NCBI GenBank assembly: GCA_000991245.1
Contig: LBRD01000001.1
Span: 5,467 to 69,466 of the forward strand
DNA length: 64,000 nt
DNA from: Parcubacteria group bacterium GW2011_GWC1_36_108
GTDB taxonomy: Bacteria > Patescibacteriota > Minisyncoccia > Moranbacterales > GWC2-37-73
Direction: 5' to 3'
In this document: positions 24,992-54,977 of the stretch, piece after piece
Position numbering within the stretch: position 1 is the first letter of the stretch
Layout: every line of letters starts with the position of its first letter
The notes under the pieces: model-generated
The model's database searches: none
What the model was told of the DNA's origin: nothing
What the model saw: the letters and a program-made list of their open reading frames with translations, nothing else
Program-made: the position numbers and the translations under genes

Positions 24992-26674
24992 TTATGATAT
25001 ATGCTCCACTGGGATTTCAATAATAAATCTCGAACCCTTGCCGGCGCCGTCGGATTCAACCCAAACTTGACCGTGGTGTGTTTCAGCAATGGCTTTACCG
25101 ACATATAGCCCCAAGCCGGTGCCACCAACGTGCAGACGTGACACATCCTTGCCACGAGAAAACTTTTTGAAAAGATATGGGATTTCCTCTTTTGGAATGC
25201 CGATGCCAGTATCGGAAACCGTGATTCGAATCACTTTTCCAAATTCAGATTTTTTTCCAACAACAAACCCATTCTCATCAACCACAACCCCTTCTTCTCT
25301 GAGCTCAGCCTTGACCGTTGCTCCTCCTTTTTCAGTATATTTAAGCGCATTATCAATAAAATTGGAAACCAATTCTCGAATTTTGGAATAATCCATCACA
25401 ATCTCCGGCAAAGGATTTTCAGGTAATTTAATGTCCAAATAAAACTTTTTGTTTTTAGCGATTAAAATAAAATTGTCATAAAGTTCCTTGATCAGTTTTT
25501 CAACACTAGCTTTTTCAAAAGTAAATTGCATTCTGCCAGATTCGATGCGCGAAACATTCAAAAGATCCTCAACCAAATCTACCAAACGCTCTGCCGAAGA
25601 ATACACTTTTTCCAGCGCACTATGCACACTCTCACTCACTTCCCCATATGATCCTTCCAACAAAAGTGAAGAGAAACCCTTAATTGCTGTGATTGGTGTG
25701 CGCAATTGATGCGAAGCAATCGAAATAAACTCCGTCTTTGCATTGTCCAATGTCCTAAGCTGATCATTCGCTTGCGCCAACCTTGTTGCCATTTCTTGAA
25801 GTTCTTCTTTACGCTCAATTTCAACCTCAACACTCCTAACCAATTTATATGCAAAAAAAGTAAGCGCCACAAATATTAAACCTTGTGATATAAATTCTGA
25901 AATACCCTTCGCCGTAAACAACTGCACCAAACTCAAAACAATAACACCCAAAGCAAGCAATTCAGTGTAAATTATTTTAATATTCAGCAGGCGATGTTTT
26001 ATGATTGCGTAACCACTGAATACATTCAAGAAAATTACACTATAAATGCCTAGGCGAGAATAAAATGTATAATTAACGCTATTCTTTATAAGATCAACCA
26101 AAACAACATTTATTAAAATTGCAATAAAAATAAAAATAAAAAGACCTGTAAATATATATGCTAGTTGGACTCTTTTTTCATTGACAATTTTTCGATATTT
26201 TATTGCCGCAATAATAGAGCCAGCCAATAAAAAAACTACTAAAAATATCTCATAAATTATTTCCAAGCTACCAAGTATAGGGTTCAGTCCTCCTGGCAAT
26301 ATCTCAAAACCTTTAACTATCAAATCCGTAAAAAATATCATCCAAAATAGTAACATCGATGGCAAATATAAGGCTACCTTAATTATCTTGTTTGATAATA
26401 TTTTCAATTCAACCAATTCACCTATAAATAGAAAAAAATAAAAAACAATAAGGCATCCAAAAAAATAATCCGATCTCAATAGAACATTTAGCCATTGTTG
26501 ATTTCTTATAACATCTTCAAAATAGAAGGAAGCAATCCAAACAAAAACACTAGACGATAAATAAAAAAAATTTCTATTTACCCTATTTCTAGTATCCTTC
26601 AATAAAACAAACAGACCCATAAAAATTGAAACGAGAGAAACAAGTACAAAAAAAATGAAATCATTTCCGAACAT
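24992..26674 (-). CDS. Sensor histidine kinase (multi-TM sensor + HisKA + HATPase)
   Basis: H-box SHQLRTPITAIKGF; N/G boxes NALKYT, DTGIGIP, GGTGLGL. Seven or more N-terminal TM segments. Confidence 0.85.
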   Translation of the reverse strand: MFGNDFIFFVLVSLVSIFMGLFVLLKDTRNRVNRNFFYLSSSVFVWIASFYFEDVIRNQQWLNVLLRSDYFFGCLIVFYFFLFIGELVELKILSNKIIKVALYLPSMLLFWMIFFTDLIVKGFEILPGGLNPILGSLEIIYEIFLVVFLLAGSIIAAIKYRKIVNEKRVQLAYIFTGLFIFIFIAILINVVLVDLIKNSVNYTFYSRLGIYSVIFLNVFSGYAIIKHRLLNIKIIYTELLALGVIVLSLVQLFTAKGISEFISQGLIFVALTFFAYKLVRSVEVEIERKEELQEMATRLAQANDQLRTLDNAKTEFISIASHQLRTPITAIKGFSSLLLEGSYGEVSESVHSALEKVYSSAERLVDLVEDLLNVSRIESGRMQFTFEKASVEKLIKELYDNFILIAKNKKFYLDIKLPENPLPEIVMDYSKIRELVSNFIDNALKYTEKGGATVKAELREEGVVVDENGFVVGKKSEFGKVIRITVSDTGIGIPKEEIPYLFKKFSRGKDVSRLHVGGTGLGLYVGKAIAETHHGQVWVESDGAGKGSRFIIEIPVEHIS

Positions 26675-53080: not shown

Positions 53081-53355
53081 AATTTTATTTTATAAATTTA
53101 TATCAATATTATAGCACAGTTCTAACTTCCTACTGCCCCACCAAAAAAGAGACTGACTAAAGCCTCTTTTTTATGTCTGCACGGGGTGCAGGAATCCTCC
53201 TCCCCCGAAATTTCTCGCGAATACACAGAGAAATTTCTCCTCCGGAGCCTGGGTTTTCAAAAACGTAAAATCGTTTGCGTTTTTGAAATACCCTTCGATT
53301 CCTACGCAAGCAAATAATAAAACAGACATCATTATGATGTCTGTTTTATTATTTG

Positions 53356-53426
53356 CACGGGCGGCAGGAATCGAACCCACGCCAACGGTTTTGGAGACCG
53401 ACGTACTACCACTATACGACGCCCGC
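53356..53426 (-). tRNA. tRNA-Trp (anticodon CCA)
   Basis: Manual fold: acceptor GCGGGCG/CGCCCGU, anticodon loop CUCCAAA, T-loop UUCGAUU, discriminator G73. A CCA anticodon is consistent with the standard code (UGA is stop). Confidence 0.8.
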
Positions 53427-53630: not shown

Positions 53631-53725
53631 ATAATTAGCTTATTAGGCTTTAGCTTTTTAGCTTCTTAGTGAATCCAAAAAACAAAAACTTTTTTATAAA
53701 TAATTCAATTTATTAATTCAACCTG

Positions 53726-53797
53726 AGCCGAAGAGAGGAATCGAACCCCCAACCCATCGCTTACAAAGCGATTGCTCTACCGTTGAGCTACTTCGGC
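53726..53797 (-). tRNA. tRNA-Thr (anticodon UGU)
   Basis: GCCGAAGUAGCUCAACGGUAGAGCAAUCGCUUUGUAAGCGAU...GGUUCGAUUCC; anticodon loop UUUGUAA. Confidence 0.8.
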
Positions 53798-53808
53798 TTA
53801 TTATCTAT

Positions 53809-54423
53809 CTATGTCAATTCTTTCTTATATTGATCTATCCAAGACAATAAAATGTTTAACAACTTTTTATCTGAATAATTTATTGCTATCGTACCCCAGC
53901 GAGATTTATTCTTATATGTTCCCACTCTGCCTTCATGAACATGTGATCTATAAAATCTCTCTGTCGGAATATTGGTTAGCTTTGACCAAAAAAGTTTCAA
54001 TTCTTTTTCATTGTGATCAGGATATATATGTATCAAAGCCTTCAGTCGTTCCTCTTGAACTCCGCAAATCTTCCTCAAAAAATTTAAAAAAACTTTTATC
54101 ATTTCAGGGTCACTATTTGCAAACTTGACTGTATTTTCTGTCTTAGCACCCTCGCCCCAGTACAGCATAATACCGGAAATTTTCAGTTCATTATCAACTC
54201 TTGAAATAACTTTTTTCAATTCAAATGGTTTTTTGTTAAATTTGGTCACATTCAAACTTGTAACAGCCTCGCTTATCGAACGCTTTTTGACATTTTGTTT
54301 TGCCAACCAATAGCACACAGCTGAATTTGAAACATCCAGCTTTTCAGCTATTTGCATTGCAGATAATCGCTCCTCCACATAAAGCTTAGCGATTCTATTT
54401 TGAATATTTTTTGAGATTGCCAT
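53809..54423 (-). CDS. HTH-domain protein, possibly a LAGLIDADG-type homing endonuclease, embedded in the tRNA cluster
   Basis: N-terminal HTH (LSAMQIAEKLDVSNSAVCYWLAK). The central motif GIMLYWGEGAK resembles a LAGLIDADG/GLxDGEG block. Weak assignment. Confidence 0.35.
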   Translation of the reverse strand: MAISKNIQNRIAKLYVEERLSAMQIAEKLDVSNSAVCYWLAKQNVKKRSISEAVTSLNVTKFNKKPFELKKVISRVDNELKISGIMLYWGEGAKTENTVKFANSDPEMIKVFLNFLRKICGVQEERLKALIHIYPDHNEKELKLFWSKLTNIPTERFYRSHVHEGRVGTYKNKSRWGTIAINYSDKKLLNILLSWIDQYKKELT

Positions 54424-54480
54424 GCTACAATATTAGCACAGTAACTGTTATTTGACAAACTACTCTACTATAAATAATTT

Positions 54481-54537
54481 TAAACCAATACCCCAAAAAA
54501 AGGCGTCTGTTTTAAAATTGGTGGGCAGAGAGGGATT
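54481..54537. repeat. Direct repeat copy A: duplicate of the tRNA-Tyr 3' end (19 nt) plus ~37 nt of its 3' flank (att-like)
   Basis: TAAACCAATACCCCAAAAAAAGGCGTCTGTTTTAAAATTGGTGGGCAGAGAGGGATT, versus copy B at 54697-54752 (about 5 mismatches). Confidence 0.6.
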
Positions 54538-54696
54538 TTCGCGTCGCTTGTTCGTCGACACTCACAATCTCCTTGCCCTGGTCAGCGCTGAATGCTCGTA
54601 TTCCTCGCATTCATCGGCGCACGCTGCGTTGTCTTTCTGCTGAAAGCCAACTTGCTTAGCTCCTGACCGTTCGAATCCTATCATTGTCAATAATTT

Positions 54697-54752
54697 TAAA
54701 TCAATGCCCCAAAAAAGGGCATTGTTTTAAAATTGGTGGGCAGAGAGGGATT
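54697..54752. repeat. Direct repeat copy B (the genuine tRNA-Tyr 3' end and its terminator region)
   Basis: Overlaps tRNA-Tyr at 54734-54752. Confidence 0.6.
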
Positions 54753-54819
54753 CGAACCCCCGAAGGCGTAAGCCGTGTGGTTTACAGCCACATCCAGTTG
54801 ACCGCTTTGGTATCTACCC
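54734..54819 (-). tRNA. tRNA-Tyr (anticodon GUA), long variable arm, CCA encoded
   Basis: GGGUAGAUACCAAAGCGGUCAACUGGAUGUGGCUGUAAACCACA...GGGGGUUCGAAUCCCUCUCUGCCCACCA. Confidence 0.85.
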
Positions 54820-54904
54820 GAGATATACTATATGCATATATAGTATTTCGTATTTCATATTAAAATATGAATTACAAAATGCTAGATACGAAATTCTTCT
54901 ACTG

Positions 54905-54977
54905 AGCCGTTGACCGGAGTCGAACCGGTGACCTCGCCCCTACCAAGGGCGTGCTCTACCAACTGAGCTACAACGGC
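54905..54977 (-). tRNA. tRNA-Thr (anticodon GGU)
   Basis: GCCGUUGUAGCUCAGUUGGUAGAGCACGCCCUUGGUAGGGGCG...CCGGUUCGACUCCGGUCAACGGCU. Confidence 0.8.

Follow-up and report, generated by a model that had tools for sequence, protein, structure and literature searches.

The window analysed here comprises 64,000 nucleotides (64 kb) of contig LBRD01000001.1 from Parcubacteria group bacterium GW2011_GWC1_36_108 and harbors a cluster of four tRNA genes, all located on the minus strand. Three units of a recurrent, structured cassette type that lacks open reading frames (ORFs) are found in this cluster, two behind tRNA-Tyr and one behind tRNA-Trp. An ORF encoding a protein of 204 amino acids (aa), discussed below as a putative homing-endonuclease gene, is located between tRNA-Tyr and tRNA-Thr(UGU), and an rpmG-like ORF (ORF list) lies between tRNA-Thr(UGU) and tRNA-Trp. 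The tRNA genes are arranged as follows, in window positions:

54904-54977, minus strand: tRNA-Thr(GGU), first gene of the cluster (ARAGORN; Rfam tRNA, 67.9 bits)
54734-54819, minus strand: tRNA-Tyr(GUA), intact, with encoded CCA (ARAGORN and Rfam)
53725-53797, minus strand: tRNA-Thr(UGU), always preceded by the subfamily of the window ORF (ARAGORN and Rfam)
53355-53426, minus strand: tRNA-Trp(CCA) (ARAGORN and Rfam)

The 64-kb window contains two exact copies of the 3'-terminal 19 nt of tRNA-Tyr, AATCCCTCTCTGCCCACCA, which include the encoded CCA; both copies (54734-54752 and 54519-54537) are located on the minus strand. A chance repeat is ruled out, with no match to the 19-mer in 100 shuffles. 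The exact repeat comprises 30 nt (19 nt of the tRNA and 11 nt of its flank) and grows to 46 nt at 89% identity and to ~56 nt with one indel, taking in a ~40-nt hairpin; its left edge is located in the T-loop, at ~position 58 of the tRNA. This is in line with the initial annotation of this DNA, which had described a ~56-nt duplication at 54481-54537 and 54697-54752 with a relatively GC-rich separator of 159 nt. The separator (54538-54696) reaches 52-57% GC, compared with a window average of 35%, and the region folds on the tRNA strand with z = -5.4 relative to shuffled sequence. The ORF list contains no credible ORF in the 159-215 nt that separate the tail copies. The segment is composed of the elements listed below, in which loci named L with a number belong to the comparison set, namely 80 genome loci fetched via the 204-aa protein together with several metagenome contigs.

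54734-54752, minus strand: A1, repeat copy 1, tRNA-Tyr from ~position 58 (T-loop) to CCA, AATCCCTCTCTGCCCACCA (repeat search)
54693-54733, minus strand: T1, hairpin directly 3' of tRNA-Tyr, with a ~89%-identical duplicate in T2 (repeat finder, folding)
54670-54679, minus strand: A'(1), AGGATTCGAA, inverted copy of the tRNA-Tyr T-loop and part of the 3' strand of the T-stem (GATAGGATTCGAA matches the probe GAGGGATTCGAA)
54580-54669, minus strand: X(1), GC-rich structured insert of unit 1, homologous to the tRNA-Leu(UAA) insert of L066 (common block GAGCATTCRGCGCTGMCCRGGG)
54566-54578, minus strand: A'(2), GGGCAAGGAGATT, degenerate inverted tRNA-Tyr 3' end with predicted pairing to A2 (minimum-free-energy folds; equivalent in L256)
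54538-54565, minus strand: X(2), short purine-rich insert of unit 2, GTGAGTGTCGACGAACAAGCGACGCGAA (loose alignment with a segment of L256)
54519-54537, minus strand: A2, repeat copy 2, exact tRNA-Tyr 3' end (repeat search)
54477-54518, minus strand: T2, second hairpin copy, ahead of the conserved ORF promoter region (repeat finder, folding, alignment)

The Tyr segments of the window and of L256, the closest relative with DNA (81% protein identity), each contain two different units in series. The first is composed of A'(1) and X(1) without a direct arm, and the second comprises A'(2), X(2), and A2. A further cassette of the same architecture is located behind tRNA-Trp in the same cluster, at 53178-53307 on the minus strand:

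53310-53356, minus strand: perfect 23-bp hairpin directly 3' of tRNA-Trp (repeat finder, folding)
53294-53307, minus strand: A' of the Trp cassette, GCGTAGGAATCGAA, inverted tRNA-Trp T-loop (TTCGATT) and T-stem (probe search, folding)
53197-53293, minus strand: X of the Trp cassette, a two-hairpin insert with 82% identity to the tRNA-Leu(UAA) insert of L069 (alignment)
53178-53196, minus strand: A2 of the Trp cassette, GATTCCTGCACCCCGTGCA, tRNA-Trp 3' end with 2 mismatches in 19 (repeat finder)
53143-53172, minus strand: terminator after the Trp cassette, found in L001 after a displaced 3' half of tRNA-Trp (folding, alignment)

The tail copy is located 176 nt behind tRNA-Trp, and the GC-rich segment in between folds with z = -9.8. 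The Tyr and Trp segments thus have the same layout. Both open with a motif (AGGATTCGAA and GCGTAGGAATCGAA, respectively) that is the reverse complement of the T-loop and T-stem 3' strand of the own tRNA, and both close with a direct copy of the tRNA tail, which is predicted to pair with the opening motif.

The same architecture recurs in relatives. Across 85 loci (L001-L085) and the window, the 16-mer at the tRNA 3' end (probe with at most one mismatch) recurs within 700 nt downstream in 13 of 204 tRNAs and upstream in none. As controls, the 5' 16-mer recurs downstream in no case and upstream in two, and reverse-complement copies are absent, so that the repeats have a clear 3'/downstream polarity. 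The tRNAs with tail copies are Tyr, Trp, Thr(GGU), Thr(UGU), Leu(UAA), Pro, Arg(UCG), and Gly(GCC). Sixteen cases have a common order, in which the intact tRNA is followed by a spacer or hairpin (optional), then by an inverted arm (A'), a 10-200-nt insert (X), and a direct arm (A2), usually with a terminator on its 3' side; each unit measures 100-260 nt. A2 is a copy of tRNA positions ~57-76 and is usually exact. Of the 16 cases, 11 have a repeat that is exact over 15 nt or more; it begins between T-loop positions 54 and 58, or a few bases further on, and mostly ends 0-4 nt beyond the tRNA, occasionally tens of nt beyond it (range 0 to 37 nt or more), giving duplications of 17-56 nt.

The inverted arm is detected in 13 of the 16 cassettes with a 12-mer probe at up to two errors, for which chance accounts for 1-5% each. 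Particularly, A' tracks the non-palindromic T-loops of the different tRNAs (TTCAAAT is answered by ATTTGAA, TTCAATC by GATTGAA, and TTCGATT by AATCGAA), and the A' arms of the orthologous Arg cassettes in L072 and L076 differ exactly as their tRNAs differ. The arm stems contain single-base bulges and, in some cases, G-U pairs. No shared nuclease gene is found downstream of the cassettes, where the genes are unrelated housekeeping genes. Three of the loci have additional short motifs. In L072, L073, and L076, the Arg and Gly cassettes have a common right-end motif, (GAAA)NNGTAATCG(C/G)GG, abutting the direct arm, and tRNA trailers and left spacers contain common ACGAG...CGAGGA(T/C)-like words. 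Moreover, GC-rich, GCGA-rich hairpins or partial tRNA 5' copies are located on the 5' side of some tRNA-Trp genes (L252:3560-3605; L003:5370-5387), and there may be a mirror-image class of inserts at tRNA 5' ends.

Filled and empty sites are both present among relatives. The tRNA-Tyr site is filled in the window and L256 and is empty in L001 (77% protein identity), L252 (75%), and L254 (73%), in which the tRNA end runs directly into the conserved promoter of the ORF. Behind tRNA-Gly(GCC), L076 contains a 161-nt unit and L072 has none, with the same downstream flank (CGAACGAGCGAAAA and a terminator). The tRNA-Arg(UCG) site is filled in L072 and L076, carries an internally deleted version in L073, and is empty in L065, L067, L070, and L083. 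In addition, tandem arrays of two or more identical units are found behind tRNA-Tyr (L031:2662-2881) and behind tRNA-Thr(UGU) (L049:1808-2124, partly masked with N). Since the arrangement is polymorphic among relatives, it differs from the identical, conserved tandem arrangement that the initial annotation had named as a counter-argument to insertion.

The initial annotation took the repeat for an att-like footprint of a decayed or excised element. On such an integrase-based reading, the tails are the attL and attR of a phage or integrative element whose body was deleted or imprecisely excised. The repeat spans the T-loop up to or past the tRNA 3' end, and the T-loop is described as the classical sublocation of tRNA attachment (att) sites (Williams 2002, as cited in PMC9897764). 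The existence of filled and empty alleles agrees with this reading, as does L001, in which a longer 3' half of tRNA-Trp stands behind the intact tRNA-Trp, as in an ordinary attR. Insertion at the tRNA 3' end from the T-loop onward, with empty (L001, L252, L254) and filled (L256) sites, is therefore retained from the initial proposal. The decayed integrase island is not: neither an integrase nor a phage gene is present between the copies or within ~10 kb, and a larger island delimited by a third repeat copy is ruled out within the 64-kb window, as no third 19-mer is found there at up to two mismatches. Homologues of the insert occur elsewhere, and the architecture recurs at 13 of the 204 tRNAs. 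All sixteen independent cases are 100-260 nt long and contain an internal inverted arm, which attL/attR sites do not predict. Moreover, the enclosed DNA is GC-rich, strongly folding, and has homologues behind a different tRNA in another genome, and hence is not junk; it is structured and conserved and does not appear to be decaying. We consider an integrase remnant improbable.

Homologous inserts are located behind different tRNAs. The insert of the Trp cassette in the window is 82% identical to that behind tRNA-Leu(UAA) in L069, an unrelated Patescibacteria contig, and the arms of each match its own tRNA. For this pair, RNAalifold predicts 38 base pairs, of which 5 show compensatory double changes and none is broken. 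Unit 1 of the Tyr segment and the Leu(UAA) cassette of L066 have a common outer helix in addition to the block GAGCATTCRGCGCTGMCCRGGG. One cassette is conserved at the level of the tRNAs themselves. A comparison of L072 with L076 gives 87% identity for the Arg cassette (~50 nt of it unchanged), 85% for tRNA-Arg, 95% for tRNA-Gly, 64% for the adjacent ORF (DNA), and 51% for the adjacent spacer. The cassettes are rich in purines and poor in T on the sense strand, which has a slight folding advantage over the antisense strand in 12 of 16 cases, a weak preference, and G-U counts show no strand asymmetry.

These data raise the possibility of a structured RNA useful to the host, which would be co-transcribed with the tRNA, released by tRNA processing, and shaped as a hairpin mimicking the top half of a tRNA, its closing stem and 3' tail being copies of the T-arm and acceptor strand. 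Such an RNA could serve as a substrate or decoy for tRNA-end enzymes or as a processing or stability element, and the repeat would exist because the function needs tRNA sequence. The strong folding (z = -5.4 and -9.8) agrees with this possibility, and so do the compensatory changes without broken pairs in the window-Trp/L069 comparison and in the extra hairpin arm of L072/L076 described below. The same holds for a cassette that is conserved like tRNAs next to coding DNA down to 64% identity, for the G-U pairs in some arm stems, for the composition and better folding of the sense strand (12/16), and for the terminator that usually follows A2. However, close relatives differ in whether they carry the cassettes, the inserts are largely unrelated between loci and so do not form a single RNA family, and Rfam gives no match. 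In addition, the L072 arms form a blunt hairpin without a free NCCA tail, folding energy differs weakly between the strands, and the G-U counts are symmetric. A host RNA is rather unlikely on balance, and it is the rival to which we give the most weight.

In the Arg cassettes of L072 (2760-2783) and L076 (2552-2575), an extra hairpin separates the acceptor-like from the T-like part of the inverted arm. If its stem is taken as 6 bp, the loop comprises 7 nt, CUGGGAG, and is of anticodon-loop form (U33, anticodon GGG, A37), which may be a coincidence; one stem pair is compensatory between the two loci. In Rfam 15, only the four tRNAs pass, both for the locus at E <=1 and for the whole window at the gathering score, and ten related cassette loci return only tRNAs at E <=0.1. 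A known RNA family is thus ruled out, the matches to TD-2 and YrlA being sub-threshold and overlapping generic hairpins or tRNA. The TD-2 match (53251-53341, minus strand; 35.4 bits, threshold 48.7, E = 0.01) takes in the hairpin behind tRNA-Trp as well as the first one of the Trp cassette and is judged to be a generic two-hairpin resemblance. Owing to the likeness of GGAUUCGA to the 5' motif of transfer-messenger RNA (tmRNA), a tmRNA or permuted tmRNA was considered. The reading was dropped since ARAGORN detects no tmRNA, the units are too short, and the motif is the reverse complement of the T-loop of the respective tRNA. Searches of metagenome and viral contigs with the 15-mer GGCTCCGGAGGAGAA return chance matches only, for example in EF-Tu genes.

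Another rival explanation involves no element at all. Breaks or stalled forks at the palindromic T-arm or the terminator would lead to sister copying and end-joining that duplicate the tail, and snap-back or template-switch synthesis would add inverted copies and filler. This local repair or replication by-product would explain that the repeat extends to the right of the tRNA by a variable amount (0 to 37 nt or more), that hairpin T is duplicated along with the tail in the window, and that tRNA tail, terminator, and inverted tail form one long palindrome in L037. Nuclease-like genes reside in the clusters, and SegB-driven amplification in phage tRNA clusters provides a precedent (PMC13096335). 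On the other side, random filler is not expected to retain 82-87% identity between distant genomes or behind different tRNAs, nor is compensatory retention of paired stems. A2 is exact and A' is imperfect, which indicates that A2 is not copied from A'. A by-product of this kind is, in our judgement, distinctly improbable.

Several known types of insert were rejected. A split tRNA or a T-loop intron is ruled out because an intact tRNA precedes every unit. Remnants of a TnpB or IS200/IS605-like guide RNA would fit in size, but there is no nuclease ORF, the 'guide' is paired with A', and the intact A1 would be left unaccounted for; the idea is retained solely within the guide-like account given further below. 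Casposon or Cas1-type target duplication is excluded by the absence of terminal inverted repeats and of Cas1. For a MITE (miniature inverted-repeat transposable element) or another non-autonomous insertion sequence, the inverted arms should belong to the element, whereas here they copy the local tRNA, and the duplication measures 17-56 nt rather than 2-10 bp. An integron attC-type site agrees in having a palindrome with a variable center, but GTTRRRY cores are absent and no integrase is found in the scanned window region. Two other GC-rich islands in the window (~315-472 and 25023-25171) resemble protein-coding DNA by eye and were dropped as further cassettes.

The 204-aa ORF follows the Tyr segment. 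Its position between tRNA-Tyr and tRNA-Thr(UGU) and its helix-turn-helix (HTH) are as initially annotated; the HTH is N-terminal:

54430-54458, minus strand: promoter-like site TTGTCA-17-TAATAT with TG upstream of the -10 element (kept in relatives, alignment)
53809-54423, minus strand: 204-aa ORF, N-terminal HTH and C-terminal LAGLIDADG-like domain (GIMLYWGEG, invariant E91), ending 12 nt before tRNA-Thr(UGU)

The extended -10 form of the promoter-like site (TTGTCA-17-TG-TAATAT) is present in 5/5 aligned relatives, so that the ORF seems to be served by a separate promoter located downstream of the cassette. Residues 1-60 form the HTH (Pfam HTH_23 and related families), and in PHROGs this part matches phage proteins that carry an HNH-endonuclease annotation, within their DNA-binding region (E = 4e-8). 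A match to an NCBIfam tRNA-splicing endonuclease subunit lies within the HTH and is non-significant (E = 0.086). Residues ~70-204 match no Pfam family, and ten longer relatives likewise contain only the HTH in Pfam. The invariant residues of the C-terminal domain include L87, Y88, W89, G90, E91, G92, K94, N103, S104, P106, C120, G121, R126, H132, Y134, and D136. The protein has 345 homologues in the protein collection, the named ones all from Patescibacteria, and a profile of the C-terminal domain collects 4,142 clusters at 50% identity (E <=0.001), two-domain proteins included. AlphaFold2 models (pLDDT 90-91) show the order helix, hairpin, helix, strand, inserted helix, strand, and helix.

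Against the PDB, a diverse profile (A8) gives I-DmoI as the best match, at a borderline E = 0.02 (17.6 bits), and a narrower profile (A1, unrelated to the arm) finds nothing. The alignment places MLYwaEGtk...NsdpemiklflkfL on GLYVAEGDK...NKNKALLEIVSRWL, the second motif of I-DmoI, so that the invariant Glu falls on the Glu of YVAEGD, which is E117, one of the two catalytic residues of I-DmoI. Membership among the LAGLIDADG enzymes is probable rather than established, with this one borderline sequence link in its favor.

The strongest, albeit indirect, evidence for a homing-endonuclease family comes from its genomic behaviour. In nearly all 80 loci (L006-L085), the family gene is followed, at a distance of 5-30 nt, by a tRNA gene of the same strand. 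Subfamilies follow the tRNA, namely Thr(UGU), Tyr, Gly(GCC), and once Leu(UAG), and extra paralogues stand ahead of Trp and Val in several loci. Genomes differ in its junction within the conserved Thr(GGU)-Tyr-Thr(UGU)-Trp cluster, some having the gene at Tyr|Thr and others at Thr|Tyr. Strict tRNA adjacency together with the occupation of different junctions is the pattern expected of a homing-endonuclease gene. We interpret the ORF as a free-standing, divergent, single-motif homing-endonuclease gene of the LAGLIDADG type, inserted just 5' of tRNA-Thr(UGU), with putative homing activity. The LAGLIDADG-like block proposed initially receives borderline support from the I-DmoI motif and the tRNA placement; Pfam, Foldseek, and hhalign comparisons are negative or weak.

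The syntenic relative L001 carries GIY-YIG ORFs of 91 and 82 aa just upstream of tRNA-Tyr and tRNA-Trp, respectively (L001:3552-3935 and L001:4948-5440). The first is flanked by a duplicated 5' part of tRNA-Tyr. Behind the intact tRNA-Trp of L001 lies a displaced tRNA-Trp 3' half extending from the anticodon loop to CCA, and a GC-rich palindrome, GTCGCTCGCGAGCGAC, is located on both sides of the GIY-YIG/tRNA-Trp unit.

The genes surrounding the cluster are of a housekeeping type. Within ~10 kb, Pfam identifies a P-type ATPase, glycosyltransferases, CARDB, TPR, PSP1, and PrmC, and further neighbors were assigned by eye as MsrA/B, EF-Ts, S2, L31, and RF1.

Taken together, we favor the reading that the Tyr segment consists of two stacked, partly decayed small non-coding cassettes, belonging to a class in Patescibacteria whose target in tRNA genes spans the T-loop to the 3' end, and that the ORF is a divergent homing-endonuclease gene of the LAGLIDADG type; the chance that this is correct is about even. 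We infer that the cassettes are mobile, and the mode of movement outlined here is likewise conjectural. In each cassette the tRNA stays intact, with A1 completing the gene and A2 located behind the insert. A' represents the inverted T-loop and T-stem of the same tRNA, sometimes with the acceptor strand. Since A' is predicted to pair with A2, a single cassette strand, either RNA or DNA, would fold as a long hairpin that encloses the structured, purine-rich X. New units would insert beside the tRNA and push older ones downstream, which would give rise to arrays. The preferred route would start with a break or recombination at the T-arm DNA, a 17-bp pseudo-palindrome, followed by copying from the filled allele. 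Homodimeric LAGLIDADG enzymes cut such pseudo-palindromic sites at their center, and the HTH/LAGLIDADG-like family (204-aa ORF) and the small GIY-YIG ORFs of relatives are candidate break-makers.

Several points weigh against this favored reading. Neither an att-like nor a break-and-copy route accounts for an A' that matches the new tRNA, and the filled allele retains an intact T-arm in A1, which leaves simple homing immunity unaccounted for. Movement of inserts between tRNAs is supported by two pairs only; most other inserts are mutually unrelated (blastn), and three longer insert motifs have 0 matches in viral contigs. The tRNA-level conservation and the compensatory changes are equally compatible with an RNA that benefits the host. 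The Pfam scan finds no integrase, transposase, recombinase, or reverse transcriptase within ~10 kb of the window cassettes, and no autonomous, protein-coding version of the cassette occurs among the loci examined. As for the ORF, the window protein and 38 family members have no match to the Pfam LAGLIDADG families (PF00961, PF03161, PF14528), only to the HTH. Foldseek searches with the models give no significant match, with LAGLIDADG-, DOD-, or intein-bearing proteins at TM-scores of 0.40-0.46 and E > 0.1, and hhalign is negative against manually entered sequences of I-CreI and I-SceI. Cassettes are commoner at tRNAs directly upstream of a member of the ORF family (6/41 compared with 7/159; odds ratio 3.7, p = 0.03), an enrichment that is weak and drawn from phylogenetically non-independent cases. 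Moreover, every comparison locus was picked because it carries the ORF family, and the cassette frequencies may be biased.

A different account would place the choice of target in nucleic acid. The cassettes would then be a hitherto undescribed class of non-coding mobile elements in which A' and A2 form a guide-like mimic of the T-arm/acceptor duplex; in a folded single strand of DNA or RNA, the mimic would direct insertion into a matching tRNA gene, with the HTH/LAGLIDADG-like protein or another enzyme acting in trans as partner. We regard this account with strong doubt. Full-text literature searches found no published description of such cassettes, a result that falls short of proving them new.

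tRNA genes are classic landing sites of mobile DNA, and partial tRNA copies are routinely taken as scars of phages or islands. In Patescibacteria, our analysis suggests that tRNA-tail repeats of the present kind should instead be annotated as very small, structured, ORF-less recurrent units. If mobile, these units would represent a minimal way of colonising essential RNA genes without harm, which raises the question of the enzyme that moves them. The C-terminal domain of the ORF represents a large tRNA-linked family without a Pfam model; if it is truly a LAGLIDADG branch, it would provide a new pool of candidate sequence-specific nucleases and a marker of selfish-DNA traffic in highly reduced genomes.

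The cassettes and the ORF resemble several known systems in part. Like the tRNA att sites of tyrosine integrases, the cassettes have a direct repeat from the T-loop to the 3' end, a regenerated tRNA, a fragment displaced downstream, and filled and empty alleles. They differ in lacking an integrase, in measuring 100-260 nt, in containing an internal inverted copy of the target set off by a structured insert, and in forming arrays. Integron attC sites and the attP hairpin of the CTX phage, which mimics dif, appear similar by analogy only, with an imperfect palindrome, a variable structured center, and single-base bulges; arrays beside one fixed site and a stem that reproduces the chromosomal target duplex may be further parallels. 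In contrast to these sites, the cassettes have no GTTRRRY/RYYYAAC cores, no identified IntI or Xer gene, and no cargo ORF, and they target tRNA genes with tRNA-specific arms.

For the ORF, the nearest likeness is to the LAGLIDADG enzymes I-DmoI and I-CreI. The 9-mer GIMLYWGEG ends a long helix and is followed by a beta hairpin, the invariant Glu is aligned with motif 2 of I-DmoI, the motif precedes a strand and a helix of the pattern VKFANSDPEMIKVFLNFL, and both single- and two-domain forms exist. The 204-aa family differs in having no Pfam match, a TM-score of 0.40-0.46, strands 3 and 4 separated by an additional helix and loop, and a fused N-terminal HTH, and in being a free-standing gene beside tRNAs rather than within an intron or intein. 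In phages T4 and T6, the homing endonuclease SegB is located in a tRNA cluster, cuts tRNA-containing DNA, and drives segmental amplification (PMC2330249, PMC13096335). Such clusters, with the GIY-YIG enzyme SegB, resemble the present one in having nuclease genes between tRNAs, presence/absence polymorphism, and nearby partial tRNA duplications or amplifications (PMC2330249, PMC13096335), and L001 carries GIY-YIG ORFs at equivalent positions. Here, by contrast, the host is a cellular Patescibacteria member and not a phage, the window gene is of the HTH and LAGLIDADG-like type and not GIY-YIG, and the cassettes have no counterpart in the SegB system. Finally, the cassettes resemble the intervening sequences of rRNA helices and MITE or REPIN hairpins, which are also small, sporadic, hairpin-forming non-coding inserts at a loop of a structured RNA gene element. 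Unlike those, the cassette arms are derived from or matched to the target, none of the cassettes is dispersed elsewhere in the 64-kb window, and they do not interrupt a functional RNA because the duplicate tail restores the tRNA.

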